This document shows positions 2-49,069 of a DNA stretch of 52,526 nt, one piece after another (positions within the stretch are counted from its first letter, which is position 1; every line of letters starts with the position of its first letter). Origin of the DNA: Candidatus Omnitrophota bacterium (lineage in GTDB: Bacteria > Omnitrophota > Gorgyraeia > Zapsychrales > Fredricksoniimonadaceae); assembly GCA_015233165.1 (NCBI GenBank), contig JADFYF010000006.1, positions 1-52,526 of the forward strand. The letters run 5' to 3'. Below the pieces are notes generated by a model. That model did no database searches. It worked only from the letters and a program-made list of their open reading frames with translations, and was not told the DNA's origin. Made by a program: the position numbers and the translations under genes.

Positions 2-2977
2 GTCAAGAGTATAGATTTAATGCGGTTTAAAGCAGGGCCGGCCCAAGATGGTAAACGAGTAGTCGCGGTGTCTTTTGATGCGGCGATGACGGCTAGATGG
101 GTGTTTCTTAGTTTTGGTGGTTTTGGTTTGGCTGCCGGGCTCTTATTGTTCCATGGAGGAGTATTAAAGGTTGAAGATAAGAATCCACCTCCGATTGCGG
201 ATGTAGTAGATTTGCCTCCTATAAATAGCAGAACTTCTATTGATGAGTCTAAATTCAAAGTAGATTCTCATGAGAAGGTGGGGAGTATTGCTTCCTTGCT
301 TTATCATATTTACTATGCAGATCGAGATCGTGGGCCTAATAGAAAATTTGCTTTTGGAAATCTTGATGCAGACATGAGGCGTGATGGAGGAAGTATTCAA
401 GTTGAGTTAGATAATAAGGAATTGATATATTACGATAATCAGTTTGGGAGACAGGAGGATCATGACACGGTCGAGAAGAATTTGTTTTATATTAATTCAA
501 ATACATTTGTGATCAGGACAAAAAATGGAGATTTTATTGTTCAAGGAACCTTCAATGATAAAAGTGATAAGGTCACAACAAGTTTCAATGTTCAAAAGGT
601 TAAAGAAGGTTTAGCGGGCATTGTTTTTTCCGTTAATAATTCAACAAAGATTATGAAAGCTTTTGATATTGATGACCAAATTGTGGCTGCCCCCGAGAAA
701 GAAAAGCGTCCTGAAATTGGCTTTGCTAATCGTGTGACAGGAGATGGGGTGTTAGATTTTGCCATTGGTAAGAAGCTGTTTAAGGTGACAAACGTGGTTG
801 GATTTACAATTAACGGCGAAGGCCAAGAAGCTGTGCTATATGTTTCATACTTAGCAGATAATAAAGCCTCTATGTTTGTAGGTAAGGTTGGAAAAGATGG
901 ACAGCTTATCCATTTAAGTAGAGAAGAGGTTAAGGCTCTTCCTGAGAAAGTTCAAAAGAGTTTGGCTGTGGATCAGGCGATGACGATTCAAGAGAGGGAT
1001 AGGTATTTAGGGTTGGCTAAGATGATAAAGAAGACCTTATTAGAAAGCATAAGACTAAAGGGTAACTTAGAAGTGTCTGCGTTGTCATTTTTATATAATC
1101 AAATCCAATATGCAGAGGGAGAAGAAGGGTCTCCAATTAAAGAAATGGGAAAAGCTTTAAAGGAGGCTAGAAATTCTGTCGCTAAATATATTGATCAAGA
1201 CACGGTCAGACGTTCTCTAGAAAAAAGTCTTAATAGTATAAATTTGGATGAACCATCGATGACGGTTGGTAACTCAAGGATTCAATTTGTACCTTTGGGA
1301 AGAACTTCACAAGTATCGTGGGAAACCCCAAGAGTAACTTGGAAGGCTGGGCTTCCTGTAGTTTTAAGTACAGTTATAACGAGAGGGTTAGTTATTGTGG
1401 GAAAAGGTTTGGAATTAAAAATAACAAATTTAGAAGATGAAATAGGTTATCTCGGAAATGAAGAATTATTTCTCGGAAAGTTTCAGAAGGAGCGTAATGA
1501 TCTGAAAAAGGCCTTTGAGAAAGCGAAGGAGGATTTACAAAAGAAAGGTTTGCAAGATCAAGATAGAATTAAGAATGAATTTAAAAGGACATTAGAAAGT
1601 ATAAGAGACTCTGCAATGACGATCGATACTGCACTTAGAGAGGTTCTGATGATTGAGAGGGATCGATTGATTAGTGAGACTAGTGGGTTGACCTTTACGG
1701 GGCAGGAAAAAGAGAAGTTAGAGGCTATTATTGCAGAACTTAGAAAATATATAAACAATAGCAAGAACGTTCTTTTAACGGATGGCTTGAGTCAGCTGAT
1801 TGTTCAACTTAAGAATGATGAAAATGCTCAACCGGCAACTAGGTTGATGGCGGCTCAGATTTTAGATGTCGCCAGTAACGCTGCGGGTGTGTATGGAAAT
1901 GATGGCGGAATATTAAAGGGGTGGGCTCAACAATTAAATATGTTTGGAACAAATGCTGTTTTAACGGTAGCTAAGGATGAATCTACAGCGGCGGGAAGTT
2001 TTGTTGTTGAGAAGATTATGAGAACCTATATCAAACAAGAAGAGCTTAAGCGGGATGCTGATTTTAAAGAAAGCGTCGTGACCGCCTTAGCTTTCTTTGG
2101 AATTATTGTGGATCGAGAAACACTGCAATATCAAATAGAAAAAGATGTGAAAGGTTTAACTTCTGATCAACAAAAGAAGATTTCTGGATGGGTAAATAGT
2201 GTCGTCTCCTTGGCCAGCCAAGCTTTGGCAGATTTGCAAGAAGCAAGGCGTGGTGGTAAGGGGGATGAGGCGATGATGGGGGATGGAGATGCTACTTTAA
2301 CTCGAAGAAATTTTATAGGCAAGATAGCTGGGGCTGCAGGGACTTTAGTCACTAGCCGTATTTTGGCGGATGATCCTGAAGACAATGAGAATCCTATAGT
2401 TTATTCTGAGGGGCAGAGCTCAGCTGTTAAGAGTTTTACTTTCAGTCAAGTCATGCTTTTTCCTGTTATGGCTGGGGAAGATCCTAATACGGTTCTTAAT
2501 TCAGGGGTATTCCAAGGTCTTTTAACAAGTTCAACTTTTAAGGCTTTAAAGAATTATATCGCAAAGCATCGAGATATCCGTGATACTAACCCACGAAAAT
2601 GGGTATGGCATATCTTGGCCAAGAAGTATTATAAAAAGGGGTTACATAAAGAAGAAATTGATGAACTCAGAAAGACGTACATCAATGCAGATATTTCTTG
2701 GGAAAATACTGAGTTTGAAAATGGGCTCAAAGATAAAGCTCTGATATCTAATGAAGAGCATCTTGGTGGTATCGATTTTAATGCCGCTAACTTGAATCTG
2801 CAAATTAAGCGGGATGGCAAGGGAGTTCCGCTTCCGATTTCTCAGCAGAATTTGGAGAATATCAAATTAGATGGGTTGATTCCTGTCATTCTGGACATCA
2901 AATCTGCCATGGATGTTCCTCTGTTAGCAGAATTGCGAAATGCCGCCAAGCAGCCGGAGCAGTTGGCGAAGGTTTAA
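2..2977 (+). CDS. 3' part of a large modular protein with D-x-A-M-delimited modules and a C-terminal GGIDFN tail; 5'-truncated by the window edge
   Basis: Frame has no stop from nt 2 (VKSIDLM...) to TAA at 2975-2977. Motifs DAAM 77, DQAM 971, DSAM 1607, DEAM 2264, DKAL 2732; GGIDFNAANLNLQIKRDG at 2765. Confidence 0.85.
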   Translation, partial: VKSIDLMRFKAGPAQDGKRVVAVSFDAAMTARWVFLSFGGFGLAAGLLLFHGGVLKVEDKNPPPIADVVDLPPINSRTSIDESKFKVDSHEKVGSIASLLYHIYYADRDRGPNRKFAFGNLDADMRRDGGSIQVELDNKELIYYDNQFGRQEDHDTVEKNLFYINSNTFVIRTKNGDFIVQGTFNDKSDKVTTSFNVQKVKEGLAGIVFSVNNSTKIMKAFDIDDQIVAAPEKEKRPEIGFANRVTGDGVLDFAIGKKLFKVTNVVGFTINGEGQEAVLYVSYLADNKASMFVGKVGKDGQLIHLSREEVKALPEKVQKSLAVDQAMTIQERDRYLGLAKMIKKTLLESIRLKGNLEVSALSFLYNQIQYAEGEEGSPIKEMGKALKEARNSVAKYIDQDTVRRSLEKSLNSINLDEPSMTVGNSRIQFVPLGRTSQVSWETPRVTWKAGLPVVLSTVITRGLVIVGKGLELKITNLEDEIGYLGNEELFLGKFQKERNDLKKAFEKAKEDLQKKGLQDQDRIKNEFKRTLESIRDSAMTIDTALREVLMIERDRLISETSGLTFTGQEKEKLEAIIAELRKYINNSKNVLLTDGLSQLIVQLKNDENAQPATRLMAAQILDVASNAAGVYGNDGGILKGWAQQLNMFGTNAVLTVAKDESTAAGSFVVEKIMRTYIKQEELKRDADFKESVVTALAFFGIIVDRETLQYQIEKDVKGLTSDQQKKISGWVNSVVSLASQALADLQEARRGGKGDEAMMGDGDATLTRRNFIGKIAGAAGTLVTSRILADDPEDNENPIVYSEGQSSAVKSFTFSQVMLFPVMAGEDPNTVLNSGVFQGLLTSSTFKALKNYIAKHRDIRDTNPRKWVWHILAKKYYKKGLHKEEIDELRKTYINADISWENTEFENGLKDKALISNEEHLGGIDFNAANLNLQIKRDGKGVPLPISQQNLENIKLDGLIPVILDIKSAMDVPLLAELRNAAKQPEQLAKV

Positions 2978-43671: not shown

Positions 43672-45906
43672 ATGATTCATTATCTAGATATTGTTTGTAG
43701 TCTTTTTTTGCAGGCCTGGTATGTTCCTTCCTTAGTCTTCTTAACAGCTATTATTTATTACTTTTCTAGAGGCAAGAGTACCGTTTCTTTAGAAACACGT
43801 GATCATTATTGGTGGTTAATAGCCGTCGGGTTTATTGTTTTCTTGTTATTATCACCAGCTTATTGGTTATTTGGGGAAAATGCTGCGCATAGTTTTTCGG
43901 ATGATGTAACGCATACCTTACAGACGTATCTATCTTCTTCTCATCGAGGAGATTCTTTTAATTGGACGAATAGTTTGACGGGAGGTATGGACCGTTGGCT
44001 TTTACCGAATTGTTACCCGTGGTCTTTAGGACGGATTTATGCGCTTTTTCTTTCGCATCCTTATCAACTGTATCTGTTAGTCATTGCGATTAACGTTGTA
44101 TTAGTTTTTGTTTTTTCTTGGAAGATTCAAAGAGAGATTCTTGGGATGCAGCGATGGGCGTGCTATCTGGGATCCTTGGTCACAGTTATCATTGAGGGAT
44201 ATTGGACAGGTTTATATCCGGACGCGCACGTTTCTAATGGACATGGCTTTGCAGTTATCATTGTCGGAGTTTATTGGTTAACACGTTTTTGTCGGCATCG
44301 TTATTTTTGGCTTGTGGCAGTCATGGTCGGGATCGCTATGGCGGTTGGCTCCTGGACACCTTTTCATAATTTGCTGCCACTTTTGATGACTATGGGTATA
44401 TGGGGTTTGGTGTTTTGGGGGCAAGGATCCTGGATTAAAGTGTTTAAGGCGAATATCTTAATCTTGATTACTGTCATTGTTGTTCTTTTTCCTTATTTTT
44501 TAGCTATTAAATTATTATTTGCGGCTTCAGGGCGCTCTGAGGTTTTCAGACCTACTGTTAATCTATCCGGGTTATATTTAATGCCGCAGATGCGGGTATT
44601 ATTGGGTATGGCAGTAGTTGGAGGACTCTTAAGGATCTATCGTCAGAAAATTGTGCAACAGGTTTTAGTGATGTTTTTGGGATTTTCTGTATTACCTTTA
44701 ATAGCTCATTGGATGGAGGCAAGCAGGGTTATGCCGTCATTTCGTTGGCAATTATTTTATGCGGGAAACGATGCTTGGACCTGGATGGCCGCTGTGTTCT
44801 TTTTAGAAAGGATTCAGCGAGAAATTCATGAGCGATGGGCTGTCGCGGGAATTGCCTGCAAATGGATGATGATTACTGCTTGTTCGACGATGATCATCTT
44901 TGCCTGGATGGACTCACTATGGATGGATTTAGTTTCTTCATACCCTGCGGGTAATTGGAAGACCCTGACGGATACGTCTGTCAGCTCACGAATGAAGGTT
45001 ATGGAACCAAGATTGGGAAGGGTTGTTGGTATTGATGATACGAATGATATGCATTTTTGGGGACAATTTCAAGGTTTTGAATCTGCCTTGGGGTATACTC
45101 CATTTATTGATCGACGTAAGACATATTTTTGGTGGTATACGGCTATGGGACAAAGCTTACACGGGGCATATACAGCTGCTTTTTTATCAATTCCTATACC
45201 AGTCCTCAAACATGATAAACATTTAGATTTTCCAATACCATTAAATGCCCTGGTTAGTCTTGATGCACTTAAGTTAGGTAATGTCCGATGGATTGTTTCA
45301 CACCATCCTTTATATCCGATGGAGGGGTTGCAGTTGGTGGATGGGGATGTTGGTCGGGACCCCGCATGTACAGATGAGCCTTTGCCGTTATCACGAGTTG
45401 ATTTTAATAATTGGAATCGTTATTGGAGGGACGTCGGCTGTATTATTAAAGATTATTCCTATCCACGATCTTTATATTTTTATCATTTAGAAGGAGCCTT
45501 GCCTCGTGTTTATTTGGCTACTCAAGTATTGCCATGGCCACAAGGACAGATTCAGGTTTTAAGCCAGCAACAATTATCTTTTGCTGTTCAAGAAGCAGCG
45601 TTTGTTGATTTAAAGGAATGGAAGCCGTATCAGGGGGTTAATGACTCTTTAGTAGATATTAAGGATTATCACAATGATTTCATACGGCTACATATCAAGG
45701 CCCAGCAGGAGGTCTTGGTTGTTCTTTCTACTACTTTAAATTCTTATTGGCAGATTTATATTCAGGGGAAACAGGTTCCTTTTTTTGATGTGAATGGTTT
45801 TCAAACGGGTATTTGGGTAACTCCGGGCAATAAAGAGGCGGAACTCATCTATTGTCCTCCTTTTCGTCCTGGTAAGCATCCTTTGTGTTCTCGAGGATCA
45901 AAATAG
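43672..45906 (+). CDS. YfhO-like multi-TM membrane protein (GT-C-like)
   Basis: Many TM helices; ALPRVY; C-terminal W..YI.G....V.G.Q.G..V..G domain. Confidence 0.6.
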   Translation: MIHYLDIVCSLFLQAWYVPSLVFLTAIIYYFSRGKSTVSLETRDHYWWLIAVGFIVFLLLSPAYWLFGENAAHSFSDDVTHTLQTYLSSSHRGDSFNWTNSLTGGMDRWLLPNCYPWSLGRIYALFLSHPYQLYLLVIAINVVLVFVFSWKIQREILGMQRWACYLGSLVTVIIEGYWTGLYPDAHVSNGHGFAVIIVGVYWLTRFCRHRYFWLVAVMVGIAMAVGSWTPFHNLLPLLMTMGIWGLVFWGQGSWIKVFKANILILITVIVVLFPYFLAIKLLFAASGRSEVFRPTVNLSGLYLMPQMRVLLGMAVVGGLLRIYRQKIVQQVLVMFLGFSVLPLIAHWMEASRVMPSFRWQLFYAGNDAWTWMAAVFFLERIQREIHERWAVAGIACKWMMITACSTMIIFAWMDSLWMDLVSSYPAGNWKTLTDTSVSSRMKVMEPRLGRVVGIDDTNDMHFWGQFQGFESALGYTPFIDRRKTYFWWYTAMGQSLHGAYTAAFLSIPIPVLKHDKHLDFPIPLNALVSLDALKLGNVRWIVSHHPLYPMEGLQLVDGDVGRDPACTDEPLPLSRVDFNNWNRYWRDVGCIIKDYSYPRSLYFYHLEGALPRVYLATQVLPWPQGQIQVLSQQQLSFAVQEAAFVDLKEWKPYQGVNDSLVDIKDYHNDFIRLHIKAQQEVLVVLSTTLNSYWQIYIQGKQVPFFDVNGFQTGIWVTPGNKEAELIYCPPFRPGKHPLCSRGSK

Positions 45907-45919
45907 GAAATATTCATTT

Positions 45920-47494
45920 ATGAAAAAACAAATTTTATATTGGATTTTATGGGGCATTCTTCTATTGGAATATGCCTATATATTCTTAGTTTTGCTTAAT
46001 TATGATATGGCTTGGATGAATCCGGAGAAGGTGTTTACACATGCCTGGATTCTAGAAAACGGTTCTAACTTGAGATGGGAAGATATTATTAAATCTTTAA
46101 ATATTGATATTATTGAAGTTAATGCGGAGAGGCTTTCTAGACCTATATCGAATCTTGTTGAAGTTCTCGATACAAAATTTCGCGCTAATTGTTGGAATTT
46201 CTTCGTGCCACATCCGTCGTTTTCTTCTTTATGGCCTGTGTTATTTTTAGCCCTTCCAGTTTTTTTATACAGATTCTTTATTAATATGGGATGTCAACGC
46301 GTGATTGCATTATCAGGGGTTTGTTTATATTTAAGTTCAATAGGGTTCTTGGGACCGATTGTGATGATGTTTCATCCTTCTAAAAGTTTGGTTAATTTTT
46401 TTGGTGTTTTTAGTTTATGGGGGATTTCGGTGTTGTATAAGAAGACGGTGCCCTTAGGGGAGAACGTCTCAATTAAGAATATCTCAAATTTCTGGATATT
46501 TTTTATAGGATTCTTAGTCAGTATGTATATGGGGTTCTTTTCCGATGAAACAGGTTTGTTTATTTATGTGGTTAATCTAGTTCTTTTGTTTCCAGTTCTA
46601 AATAGAGTTAAGGAAAGAAAGATTTTATGGGCAATTGTCTTATTGATACCAGTTCTTTATTTAATAACATTGCAAGTGTTTTTGCCTTATTTACACTTTG
46701 TAGTCAGAGGACGTGTTATCAATTTTACTCATTATGAAGCCTGTCCTCATTTATCTAGTTTGTTTTTTCCTAATTGGGGTTATCTTTGGACTAATTGTTG
46801 TTGGTTGTTTTCTGACTATCCTCACCTGATGTCAAATTTTAGAAATTCATTGACGTGTTGGCTATTTTTCTTGTTGCAGGTTATTTATAGTGGTCTATTT
46901 GTGTTCATTGTTGTGATATTTGTTAGAAGAAATTTGTTTGTTGCGTTGAACTTTTGGGCTAAGAAGGCTCTTGTATTCTTAGGACTTTTAGTTGCTTATG
47001 TTTTTTTTCAGACTTTTCAACTTTCGGCCAATGCCCATGTGTGGGGCGTATGGTGGTACGGAAGTCTTTTCTCATTGATTTATTTTATCACCTTTACTTT
47101 TATTCTTCAGGAAGTCTGGGGTAATGAGAAGAACCATTTGTTTCAGAAATGCTTTGTATTTATTGTGGCAATTCTTGTTATGGAAAGTTTAATATTTACT
47201 ACGTATAGAATTAATATTTTTAAACATCAAAATTTAGATCGTAATAATTATCAATTTATGGATATATTTAATGGAAAAATAAACCCTTATAGGGAATACG
47301 ATTTTTTGAGCAGTGCCCAAAGGAGTAGGTGTAAGTACCTGTATGCTCGAAACCTATGGGAAAAGGCTAAACAAAAGGACATTAGTTCTATTAATTCTTC
47401 TCAAATGGAATACTGTCGTACCATTTTAAACAAAGAAGGTTACTTTCCAGTTGAAATATTGTATGAATCTTTTGAATTGCGGAGGAAGAAATAA
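45920..47494 (+). CDS. Multi-TM membrane protein, putative glycosyltransferase/polymerase
   Basis: About 10 hydrophobic segments; RP.S and SDETG motifs. Confidence 0.55.
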   Translation: MKKQILYWILWGILLLEYAYIFLVLLNYDMAWMNPEKVFTHAWILENGSNLRWEDIIKSLNIDIIEVNAERLSRPISNLVEVLDTKFRANCWNFFVPHPSFSSLWPVLFLALPVFLYRFFINMGCQRVIALSGVCLYLSSIGFLGPIVMMFHPSKSLVNFFGVFSLWGISVLYKKTVPLGENVSIKNISNFWIFFIGFLVSMYMGFFSDETGLFIYVVNLVLLFPVLNRVKERKILWAIVLLIPVLYLITLQVFLPYLHFVVRGRVINFTHYEACPHLSSLFFPNWGYLWTNCCWLFSDYPHLMSNFRNSLTCWLFFLLQVIYSGLFVFIVVIFVRRNLFVALNFWAKKALVFLGLLVAYVFFQTFQLSANAHVWGVWWYGSLFSLIYFITFTFILQEVWGNEKNHLFQKCFVFIVAILVMESLIFTTYRINIFKHQNLDRNNYQFMDIFNGKINPYREYDFLSSAQRSRCKYLYARNLWEKAKQKDISSINSSQMEYCRTILNKEGYFPVEILYESFELRRKK

Positions 47495-49069
47495 ATGATG
47501 AATTTTTTAACTACTTTTTCTAAAGTCCTTCGTGTTTTGCTTGCCATTCTTCTTCTATATTTTGCTTTTTATCTGTTAGTCTATCATTATAAATTAATTG
47601 TTTTTCCTTATTCGAATACGTTTAGAGAGGCGGCTTTAGAATCAACAACATCATTGTTGACTCATGGTTTAAATCCGTATGCATTTGAGTCTCAACCACA
47701 ATATGCCAATCTCTATGGTATCGTTTATCCTCTCATTGTTTGGCCTTTGGCTAGTCATTGGGGAGTCACACTTCTCGTACATAGGGTTGTTACAGCTTTC
47801 TTTATTTTTGCCTGTTGTTTCTTTATGTTTTGGGTTCTTTTAAAGAAGAAGGTTCCTTTCCTGTTAAACGTCTTAGCTATACTCATGTTATATGCCTCCT
47901 TAATTTACCCAGCCACGAGTACGCCCTGTGTAGATCCCGCCGCTACAGGTTTATTTTTTATGTTGTTAACAATTTTTATTCCTTATTTTGGGAAGTATTC
48001 TTATCGATCATTAGTTTTTAGTTTGGTTCTTGGGATATTGGCTTTTTATACGAAACCTTATTTTGTCTTAGGGGTGCCTATTATGGTTTCGTATGTGTTT
48101 CTTTTTATTTCTAAAAAGAGGGCTATATTTTATGGTGGATTAGGCTGTTTAATGTTTGTTGTCAGTATTTTTGTGATGAATAAGATTTTTCCAAGCTATT
48201 TTGATAATTGTTTTTTTGTGCATAGCAATTCTGCTTCTGAGTGGGAAAGTATGGAACGACTTGTCAGTCAGCTGAAGTCCTATTCCTATTTGCATATGGG
48301 GGTTTTGATTTTTATAATTGGATTTTTGATAAACCGCTTATATCGGTTTATAAGATTAGGACAGTGGCAGACTCTTCAAGACAATATTTTAGGCTTTCCA
48401 AAACGTATTCAATGGTTTGTTGCAGAATCCCCCTTGATAAAAGGTTTTTTATCCTTAGAAATATGGGCGGGTATATGCACTTTCTTGGTTCTTGTTCTTT
48501 CGTTAGGAAAACACGGGGGGGCAACATTGTGGTATTTTTTCCAATTACTCTCTCCATTTTTATTAATGGCCGTTGCTCAATTAGCTGCTTCGATGAGTTT
48601 ATGGATATGGATAGCGGCTCCCTTATTCATTCTTAGCCTCCATTTATTAACAGTTGACGATAGTTTTGATAAGCAAATGGATGGGTGGGCAGAGGTTCAG
48701 GCTATTGTAAATACTAACCGTCATATTTTTTGTTCTTCTCTCATTGCACCTTTATTATTGGAAAGAAATAAAGAAATTTTTGATAGCGGCCAATCTGAAT
48801 ACTTCTTGTATGGAGCTGAACGTAGAGGATTTTGGGGCTTATTATTTCAGGAGGACAAAAGGGTTTATGGGGCAATGTCTAATTACCTGAATAGAATTGA
48901 TCAAATGATTCAGCATAAAGAGTTTGAATTGCTTATTGTTTGTGGCTATCCGTCTTTTCTTAAGAAAGATGTGGAAAGGTTTTATAGAAAAGCCGGGGCA
49001 TTTCCTTTGTATGTGCCTCAGGAACGAAGGTCGTATTTTCTAGAAATTTGGGTACCTGCGGATAAATAA
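47495..49069 (+). CDS. Multi-TM membrane protein, GT-C-like
   Basis: E......L..G.NPY, YG..YP, AF.TK; many TM helices. Confidence 0.6.
   Translation: MMNFLTTFSKVLRVLLAILLLYFAFYLLVYHYKLIVFPYSNTFREAALESTTSLLTHGLNPYAFESQPQYANLYGIVYPLIVWPLASHWGVTLLVHRVVTAFFIFACCFFMFWVLLKKKVPFLLNVLAILMLYASLIYPATSTPCVDPAATGLFFMLLTIFIPYFGKYSYRSLVFSLVLGILAFYTKPYFVLGVPIMVSYVFLFISKKRAIFYGGLGCLMFVVSIFVMNKIFPSYFDNCFFVHSNSASEWESMERLVSQLKSYSYLHMGVLIFIIGFLINRLYRFIRLGQWQTLQDNILGFPKRIQWFVAESPLIKGFLSLEIWAGICTFLVLVLSLGKHGGATLWYFFQLLSPFLLMAVAQLAASMSLWIWIAAPLFILSLHLLTVDDSFDKQMDGWAEVQAIVNTNRHIFCSSLIAPLLLERNKEIFDSGQSEYFLYGAERRGFWGLLFQEDKRVYGAMSNYLNRIDQMIQHKEFELLIVCGYPSFLKKDVERFYRKAGAFPLYVPQERRSYFLEIWVPADK

Follow-up and report, generated by a model that had tools for sequence, protein, structure and literature searches.

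Twin-arginine translocation (Tat) signals located inside a protein have been found to function in the actinobacterial Rieske protein Sco2149, in Sco3746, in a polyferredoxin and in YkuE-like proteins (PMC5449189), and an internal twin-arginine signal has also been reported for FecR (PMC11533796). In flavivirus and pestivirus polyproteins, in IGSF1 and in a preprolactin engineered to carry an internal signal, the internal signals start the translocation of the part that follows and are cut by signal peptidase (for preprolactin, PMC2113988). For the giant proteins of the Omnitrophota, a signal peptide and membrane segments are common, and cleavage into multiple products as well as a predatory or host-dependent lifestyle have been proposed (West-Roberts 2023 preprint; 2026 complete-genome preprint), with the cleavage points stated to be unknown (bioRxiv 10.1101/2023.11.21.568195); in the 2026 preprint, signal peptides called inside proteins were treated as artefacts of chunking and suppressed. 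Here, we describe a Tat-like segment deep inside an open reading frame (ORF) of a Candidatus Omnitrophota bacterium (GCA_015233165.1), located at the start of contig JADFYF010000006.1, here called C154. The assembly comprises 2.29 Mb in 187 contigs and is 78% complete, and the window is the whole stretch that was analysed, 52,526 nucleotides (nt) from base 1 of this contig.

The segment is most probably a genuine Tat-class signal sequence that heads the last variable module of a protein from a large Omnitrophota-specific family with a 4-part architecture, in which [DN]-x-A-M tetrapeptides join the parts and the modules, judged from their sequences, would behave as embedded pre-proteins.

The internal Tat-like segment

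The window opens with a single stop-free frame of 991 codons (Table 1), and translation from the earliest in-frame ATG (nt 20) would yield 985 amino acids (aa). Because the window starts at base 1 of the contig, the ORF is open at its 5' end. No contig overlapping this end was found in the assembly, and an exact 43-nt search of metagenome contigs was also empty. The contig start lies 25 codons ahead of the first of 4 D-x-A-M (DxAM) tetrapeptides in the ORF. The last of these, DEAM (residues 755-758), runs into the segment of interest, MMGDGDATLTRRNFIGKIAGAAGTLVTSRILA (residues 758-789), which reads MMGDGDATLT-RR-NFIGKIAGAAGTLVTSRILA and is followed by D790-D791. The twin arginines are residues 768 and 769 and thus not N-terminal in the translated ORF. 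Translation confirmed the peptide, its coordinates and its position more than 750 aa inside the ORF as given in the original prediction, counting only the residues held in the window.

Tat signals have the consensus S/T-R-R-x-F-L-K, which residues 767-774, T-R-R-N-F-I-G-K, fit. The segment was scored with the NCBIfam profile for Tat signals, TIGR01409, which has a curated cut-off of 16.7 bits. The entire 991-aa protein reached 14.0 bits (E 0.049), under the cut-off, whereas the 60 aa from Met758 alone reached 18.4 bits, and a six-frame scan of the whole 2.29-Mb genome gave 18.1 bits (E 0.012) at nt 2297-2356. This was the best of 3 matches genome-wide and the only one above the cut-off. The other 2 were the N-terminal signal anchors of small proteins (C108:3359-3907 and C99:51785-52270), which we take to be Rieske-type from their C-x-H...C-x-x-H motif; one of them carries K-R (KKRNFIKG) in place of R-R. 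The h-region, IAGAAGTLVTS, is short and weakly hydrophobic, with 11 residues and a mean Kyte-Doolittle value of 1.35. The c-region contains R786, and I-L-A789 ahead of DD forms an AxA-type cleavage site, as predicted by eye. The AlphaFold2 (AF2) model has a lone low-confidence helix at the segment. Genes for TatC (222 bits) and TatA (64.1 bits) were found side by side on contig C103. The Tat likeness proposed in the original prediction was thus upheld by both the consensus and the profile scores, but its premise that Tat signals act at N-termini was too strict, given the internal signals that work in Sco2149, Sco3746, the polyferredoxin and the YkuE-like proteins (PMC5449189) and are reported for FecR (PMC11533796).

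The module behind the segment (aa 790-921) was helical in an AF2 model of the tail, with a predicted local distance difference test score (pLDDT) of 60-80 in the helices; the tail model as a whole was poor (pLDDT 60.4; predicted template modelling score, pTM, 0.31). No Pfam or NCBIfam cofactor domain or other domain and no Cys was found in aa 790-991. The sole phmmer match among 1.84 billion representatives was a repeat-junk protein aligned only over the RRNFIG stretch, and the single locus from a metagenome scan matched only the acidic DDPEDNEN run of an unrelated protein; both were rejected. None of 60 genomes of relatives, including 7 of the same genus, contained a homologue of the module.

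The protein family and its linker

The last 70 aa of the ORF (aa 922-991) matched a sequence on contig C33 with 85% DNA identity, as well as 6 further places in the genome. Furthermore, 110 database proteins matched the C-terminal part at E <= 0.001, and such matches were labelled Candidatus Omnitrophota or Omnitrophica in their source records. The family, whose membership we defined by our own sequence patterns, has a cleavable signal of the general secretion (Sec) pathway, a conserved N-domain, a chain of hypervariable modules and a conserved C-terminal domain, here called GGIDL. Complete members open with a classical Sec signal, such as MKRTPFVHIGILTAFLLNSFGALPLASA followed by AE, and continue with the conserved N-domain of 310-380 aa, which ends in PRKYFSGG. 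The pattern search identified 47 ORFs with the C-domain in the genome and, with the N-domain ORFs added, at least 58 ORFs of 71,158 aa in total, corresponding to about 9% of the assembly. The family is also widespread: among the matches listed, at least 607 of at least 610 candidate stretches in species-representative genomes encode the N-domain.

Many family ORFs sit at contig edges, and many contigs start or stop inside family genes (e.g., C99:75580-99548, C110:330-17905, C66 and C143), so the family repeats probably break the assembly. The 991-aa ORF probably lacks its N-domain because the contig begins here. Some C-domain proteins were without both the Sec signal and the N-domain, and linker-bearing fragments without either end-domain were seen on C82 (776 aa, 6 motifs) and C168 (2,379 aa, 5 motifs). 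On the minus strand of C176, a 646-aa gene encodes the N-domain alone. A gap of 150 nt, with a Shine-Dalgarno-like GGAGG for the second gene, lies between it and an independent gene downstream, whose product has a REC domain at the front and the C-domain at its end; in this pair, the usual family arrangement appears to be split or not fused. Most of the family modules are orphans, and the nameable middle modules mix domains of cytoplasmic type (REC, cNMP-binding, DnaJ, PP2C, low-molecular-weight phosphatase, HATPase, kinase and GNAT) with domains of exported type (GH26 and LysM).

Neither of the end-domains nor the module of the window could be assigned to a family by Pfam and NCBIfam searches with the ORF and 2 full paralogues. 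A PDB sequence profile search with the end-domains gave nothing, and an Atlas search gave only Omnitrophota hypotheticals. The AF2 model of an N-domain (L024, C103:23113-24051; pLDDT 72.8, pTM 0.70) had no Foldseek match in PDB at E <= 0.001. Four of the top 21 weak VIA rows for this domain (Z 3.1-3.5) were latherin, BSP30b and SPLUNC1, lipid-binding folds of the BPI/PLUNC type; with the best VIA Z of 3.5 at noise level, this is a hint only. The GGIDL domain of the window and its paralogues was modelled without regular secondary structure, with the pLDDT rising to 70-82, and may, according to these models, fold only on a partner. Literature searches on the linker motif, on giant Omnitrophota proteins and signal peptides, on PMC10066038 and on the V. 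archaeovorus proteomes yielded no description of the family or the motif in the main texts.

The DxAM tetrapeptide occurred 116 times in the 56,563 aa of the 47 family ORFs, as compared to 90 times in 1,400 other ORFs with a length of at least 200 aa (595,802 aa in total). Across 278,813 family residues from 3 sources, D.AM was seen 560 times versus 28.7 expected, and no other gapped tetrapeptide with 40 or more occurrences was as strongly enriched; N.AM (125 versus 16.6 expected) and D.AQ (170 versus 46) were likewise enriched. The linker was located within 45 aa behind the N-domain in 110 of 183 proteins (median gap 13 aa) and within 30 aa ahead of the C-domain in 96 of 204, often in tandem copies, and it sits in a low-confidence linker region of the AF2 model. 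The original prediction had treated DxAM as a junction, and this view gained from the enrichment in the family; the RR motif sits 10 residues past DEAM.

A meaning of DxAM at the DNA or RNA level was also considered and rejected. The Ala codon of the linker was GCG in 67 of 143 cases, and genome-wide, an Ala codon before Met was GCG in 411 of 1,000 cases versus 22.6% of all Ala codons. Real start codons preferred T at position -1 (48%) and avoided G (9%), which is the usual base at DxAM, and only 1 of 838 real starts had an in-frame D.A upstream. Because the GCG bias is genome-wide, Shine-Dalgarno-like sequences are not in excess (see below) and the context is unlike that of real starts, DxAM is, on the sequence evidence, a protein-level motif.

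To describe what follows the linker, we scored a segment as signal-like and hydrophobic if a 13-mer with a Kyte-Doolittle value of 1.9 or more occurred within 22 aa, both thresholds being our own. In 181 proteins, such a 13-mer followed 24 of 293 DxAM sites, as compared to 47 of 2,900 other Met residues and 2,399 of 147,408 positions (odds ratio 5.4, p = 2e-10). In 258 proteins, 36 of 516 [DN]xAM sites were signal-bearing versus 21 of 1,186 sites with [DN]xA and a residue other than M, Q or L (p = 2e-7); for D.AQ, with few cases, the count was 3 of 70. Many of the post-linker segments read as textbook pre-protein heads, such as M-RVLPK-LALAGAVGVAALGV-NSNVAEA followed by A, and M-TGKTVRN-LGVAALGAALGAATLLAQA followed by Q, and one of them has a lipobox-like L-N-S-C. 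The charge of the N-flank exceeded that of the C-flank in 23 of the signal-like segments behind the linker and was lower in 12 (one-sided p = 0.045); elsewhere, the corresponding numbers were 58 and 46.

The original prediction tied RR motifs to the DxAM junctions, and their placement was indeed non-random. By a fixed definition, the 258 proteins contained 15 internal Tat-like motifs, 7 of which were located within 25 aa behind the Met of [DN]xAM, where 5.9% were expected (p = 1e-5); without the case in the window, 6 of 14 were near the linker (p = 8e-5). The other post-linker cases, all from other genomes, were L083 (DRAM-SSDMG-RRQFLSKLG..., 17.0 bits), L084 (24.5 bits), P0040, P0122 and 2 in P0127. 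It was also noted that single proteins may contain 2 internal Tat-like signals: in P0127, at residues 1050 and 1661, both are behind a [DN]xAM linker, and in P0129 (714 aa), at residues 379 and 441, neither is.

Some modules resemble whole pre-proteins. The 317 aa from the DHAM Met of L084 hold a GH26 domain, and of 8,000 scored candidates, 142 free-standing proteins were homologous to it at E <= 0.001. The best-scoring of these have 310-334 aa and match the module in size. In an alignment with 9 homologues, their N-terminal Sec signals coincided with RRKFIRTAALAAGALGLLPVTRA of L084, about 10 residues ahead of the shared F-x-P-P-D start of the mature part. With both module length and signal position matching free-standing GH26 pre-proteins, the cassette idea in the original prediction has direct support at L084. 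Furthermore, REC domains start 7-12 aa past the linker Met, and the linker Met of L123 aligned to positions 1-3 of response-regulator profiles, although this match was weak (E 0.05-0.12). Because the linker Met often precedes, at native spacing, a signal of Sec, lipoprotein or Tat type, the modules look like embedded pre-proteins.

Table 1. Features of the ORF at the start of the window, in window coordinates
Feature	Position	Strand	Evidence
5'-open ORF, 991 aa, member of the modular Omnitrophota family	2..2977	+	C-terminal domain matches 7 other genome places; four DxAM sites
First DxAM linker, DAAM, aa 26-29	77..88	+	
Clear hydrophobic segment WVFLSFGGFGLAAGLLLF, aa 33-50, directly behind DAAM; membrane anchor or signal-like	98..151	+	18 uncharged residues, Kyte-Doolittle 1.93
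DxAM linker DQAM	971..982	+	
DxAM linker DSAM	1607..1618	+	
Purine-rich Shine-Dalgarno-like run TAAGGGGGATGAGG, just ahead of ATG 2273/2276	2257..2270	+	-9.1 kcal/mol against CACCUCCU
DxAM linker DEAM (aa 755-758) at the head of the last variable module	2264..2275	+	
Tat-class signal-like segment; n-region MMGDGDATLT, RR 2303-2308, h-region 2324-2356, c-region SRILA, predicted cut after 2368	2273..2368	+	TIGR01409, Kyte-Doolittle 1.35
Orphan helical module, aa 790-921, no Cys, no known domain	2369..2764	+	Domain and homologue searches, AF2
Conserved C-terminal domain of the family, aa 922-991, GGIDF...PVILDIK...	2765..2974	+	Genome and database matches, alignment

Elsewhere in the window, 2 abutting ORFs of exactly 524 aa each (45920-47494 and 47495-49069) are preceded by an ORF of 744 aa (43672-45906). 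None of the 3 had a Pfam match at E <= 1e-5, and they may be tandem paralogues.

Readings of the internal signal

We tentatively favour a mechanism in which the modules would be released at the linker and the tail exported by the Tat pathway, although we consider its probability to fall short of an even chance. The linker would be a separation site, and a cut between DEA and M would leave a tail of 230 aa, with Met758 as its N-terminus, on the cytoplasmic side. TatA and TatC would then export this tail, and signal peptidase I would cut it after I-L-A789. We favour processing because the linker looks like a processing site and flanks both carrier domains, and because the intact signal in a fast-evolving orphan module suggests that it is used; an intact Tat consensus in a module without detectable relatives would be odd without selection.

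Several points weigh against this mechanism and against the link between signals and linker. Eight of the 15 internal Tat-like motifs, including the 2 in P0129, are away from any linker. The RR motifs behind DxAM in L096 and in the paralogue on C6 get no TIGR01409 match and look decayed, as relics would. In a TIGR01409 control with too few events for significance, 150 of 163 site fragments gave 2 distinct signals over the cut-off, and 150 of 1,654 control fragments gave the same L084 signal as their only match (Fisher p = 0.5). The site counts were taken in related paralogues and are not independent events, and our own patterns and Kyte-Doolittle thresholds decided both which proteins belong to the family and which segments are signal-like. 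No protease or secretion genes stood out in the window or around 5 family genes (C99, C110), where the neighbours were housekeeping genes. Since export of the chain is already provided for by the N-terminal Sec signal, the mechanism has to assume a cut in the cytoplasm before export. In addition, the 5' end of the window gene is missing.

On C99, it was noted that a prepilin (type IV leader) peptidase gene is located about 2.7 kb upstream of a family gene (L144:7841-8830), followed by RhuM-like and thioredoxin-like genes; such a peptidase neighbour was not seen at the other family genes examined.

An extension of the processing mechanism, which we regard as highly improbable, is that the proteins are addressed polyproteins directed against other cells. 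The N-domain and the C-domain would bring the chain into the cell of a bacterial prey or host, where it would be cut at [DN]xAM. Modules labelled with Sec, lipoprotein or Tat signals would be routed by the export machinery of the victim to its membrane or periplasm, and unlabelled modules (REC, PP2C, kinase, DnaJ, GNAT) would act in its cytoplasm. If true, this would explain the domains of cytoplasmic type behind a Sec-exported N-domain, the persistence of intact signals and the share of about 9% of the genome.

An explanation that we consider almost as probable as processing is that the signals are relics of gene capture. Whole genes would have been fused in frame at their start codon behind D-x-A with their signals carried along, and the Tat signal would be unused, since the N-terminal Sec signal exports the chain, and bound to decay. 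The L084 module fits well, as the equivalent of a GH26 pre-protein with the Sec signals of its homologues at the place of the internal Tat-like signal, and so do the REC starts close behind the linker Met and, weakly, the profile alignment of L123. The signals also form a spectrum from strong, as in L084, to decayed, as in C6 and L096, and where a signal follows the N-domain directly (L083, L084 and L111), the RR would be on the wrong side for Tat. However, most modules are orphans, which argues against recent capture from ordinary genes as the rule, and for the window module in particular, which the original prediction had suggested might be a captured gene, the searches of the 1.84 billion representatives, the 60 relatives and the metagenomes identified no donor or homologue, even though it carries the highest-scoring Tat motif of the genome. 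Nor does capture account for the D-x-A ahead of a captured start codon, given the single in-frame D.A upstream of 838 real starts, or for the tolerance of Q at position 4 of the linker.

Function in cis without cleavage at the linker appears unlikely. The segment would in this case be an internal twin-arginine start-transfer signal: upstream segments would hold the 700-aa middle part in the cytoplasm, and the last 200 aa would be exported by Tat (or Sec), whether or not the chain is cut behind ILA789. Internal Tat signals of this kind are established (PMC5449189; for FecR, PMC11533796), and the Tat machinery is present in the genome. The RR is placed directly ahead of the last, weakly hydrophobic segment before the C-terminus (1.24 over 19 aa), and one clear hydrophobic segment lies upstream (aa 33-50). 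The C6 paralogue has 3 hydrophobic segments ahead of its RR motif, the right parity if the N-domain is outside. Against this, the segment after the RR contains only 11 uncharged residues in a row, too short for a membrane span, and is followed by one Arg and then by the acidic DDPEDNEN instead of positive charges, and the tail has neither a cofactor domain nor Cys. The topology of the window protein is ambiguous, since its N-terminus is missing from the contig and the second upstream segment, at aa 449-467, contains an Arg and is a borderline case. Complete paralogues contain 0, 1 or 2 internal hydrophobic segments, and therefore there is no uniform in-cis topology that would put the shared C-domain on one side. 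The explanation also fails for members with a signal directly behind the exported N-domain.

If translation started internally, at ATG 2273 or 2276, a distinct 234-aa pre-protein would result, encoded in frame within the long ORF and headed by a Tat signal of the usual N-terminal kind. The spacing of 9-10 aa between Met and RR is native-like, and the Shine-Dalgarno-like run, 5 nt ahead of the second ATG, is the strongest at the 14 signal-bearing DxAM sites, with values of -9 kcal/mol or below occurring at 1.6% of 3,192 internal Met codons versus 7.7% of 1,085 first ATGs. The run, however, also encodes G-K-G-D-E and may be incidental, since it is protein-coding (Gly/Asp/Glu). The mean values at DxAM Met codons were -2.8 (n = 14) and -2.6 (n = 130) versus -2.7 for 1,380 other internal Met codons, and thus without excess. 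In addition, the G at -1 that is usual at DxAM is rare at real starts, Q replaces M in the linker, and no promoter-like site was found upstream of nt 2273, the regional count being equal to the shuffled mean. The family as a whole thus speaks against internal initiation, one of the routes to a free N-terminus in the original prediction, and we consider it very unlikely here.

Finally, chance resemblance, that is, an ordinary amphipathic or hydrophobic helix beside 2 arginines with no targeting meaning, is hardly credible, since despite the whole-protein score under the TIGR01409 cut-off, a genome-wide E of only 0.012 and the lone low-confidence helix, the segment is the top Tat-profile match in 6 frames of 2.29 Mb, has all signal-peptide regions in order and recurs as an arrangement behind [DN]xAM in the other genomes named above.

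Comparison with known systems

Internal targeting signals and polyproteins are both known kinds. The window protein resembles the dual Sec/Tat membrane proteins (Rieske Sco2149, Sco3746, the MLMS-1 polyferredoxin and YkuE-like proteins; Keller 2012, Tooke 2017) and FecR in that the RR is far from the N-terminus and before the last weakly hydrophobic segment, the upstream part is Sec-dependent and the Tat machinery is present. It differs from the dual Sec/Tat proteins described there in that the segment has the length of a signal peptide (11 uncharged residues), an AxA-type end and acidic residues behind it, and in that the protein has no cofactor domain and more than 750 aa upstream; in several family relatives, moreover, the signal is directly behind an exported domain.

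With the flavivirus and pestivirus polyproteins, IGSF1 and the engineered preprolactin (PMC2113988), the family shares a single ORF with several modules and internal signals. Unlike these eukaryotic systems of the endoplasmic reticulum and Sec61, it has a bacterial host, signals of Tat and lipoprotein type and a conserved [DN]xAM ahead of them.

The giant Omnitrophota proteins (West-Roberts 2023; 2026 complete-genome preprint) come from the same phylum. They differ from the window family in being 10-150 thousand aa long with other domain sets, and no cleavage site, DxAM or N-domain/GGIDL family is mentioned in the accessible parts of the 2 preprints. Whether the very large Omnitrophota proteins act as a single chain or as cut parts is stated there to be an open question, for which [DN]-x-A-M offers a testable candidate separation motif. 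Internal signal-peptide calls in long Omnitrophota proteins should be looked at before they are discarded as artefacts.

A family of hundreds of genes is available for testing the linker, and independent evidence comes from signals of 3 classes, whose positions would suit an N-terminus at the linker Met. Because the Tat signal sits just behind a linker that joins modules, deep inside the protein, our results suggest that the family proteins are chains of separately addressed parts. Should the linker prove to be a true cut site, the family would represent a polyprotein system of bacteria whose modules are individually addressed, and Tat signals would be known from a new context. Should the signals be relics, whole genes would often have been captured in frame, an unusual history in its own right. 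In the portions of the literature covered by our searches, we found no bacterial family in which modules resembling pre-proteins are lined up behind a fixed tetrapeptide and one ORF combines signals of the Sec, lipoprotein and Tat types.

Polymorphic effector and toxin families, multi-effector proteins of the MARTX type and LapA-type adhesins have conserved trafficking ends and variable cargo, or are cut at a short linker motif. The family described here has no sequence or fold relation to them, is conserved at both ends and has no processing protease domain that we could find, but it resembles them in its conserved ends, its variable cargo, the short sites between its modules and its many paralogues per genome.

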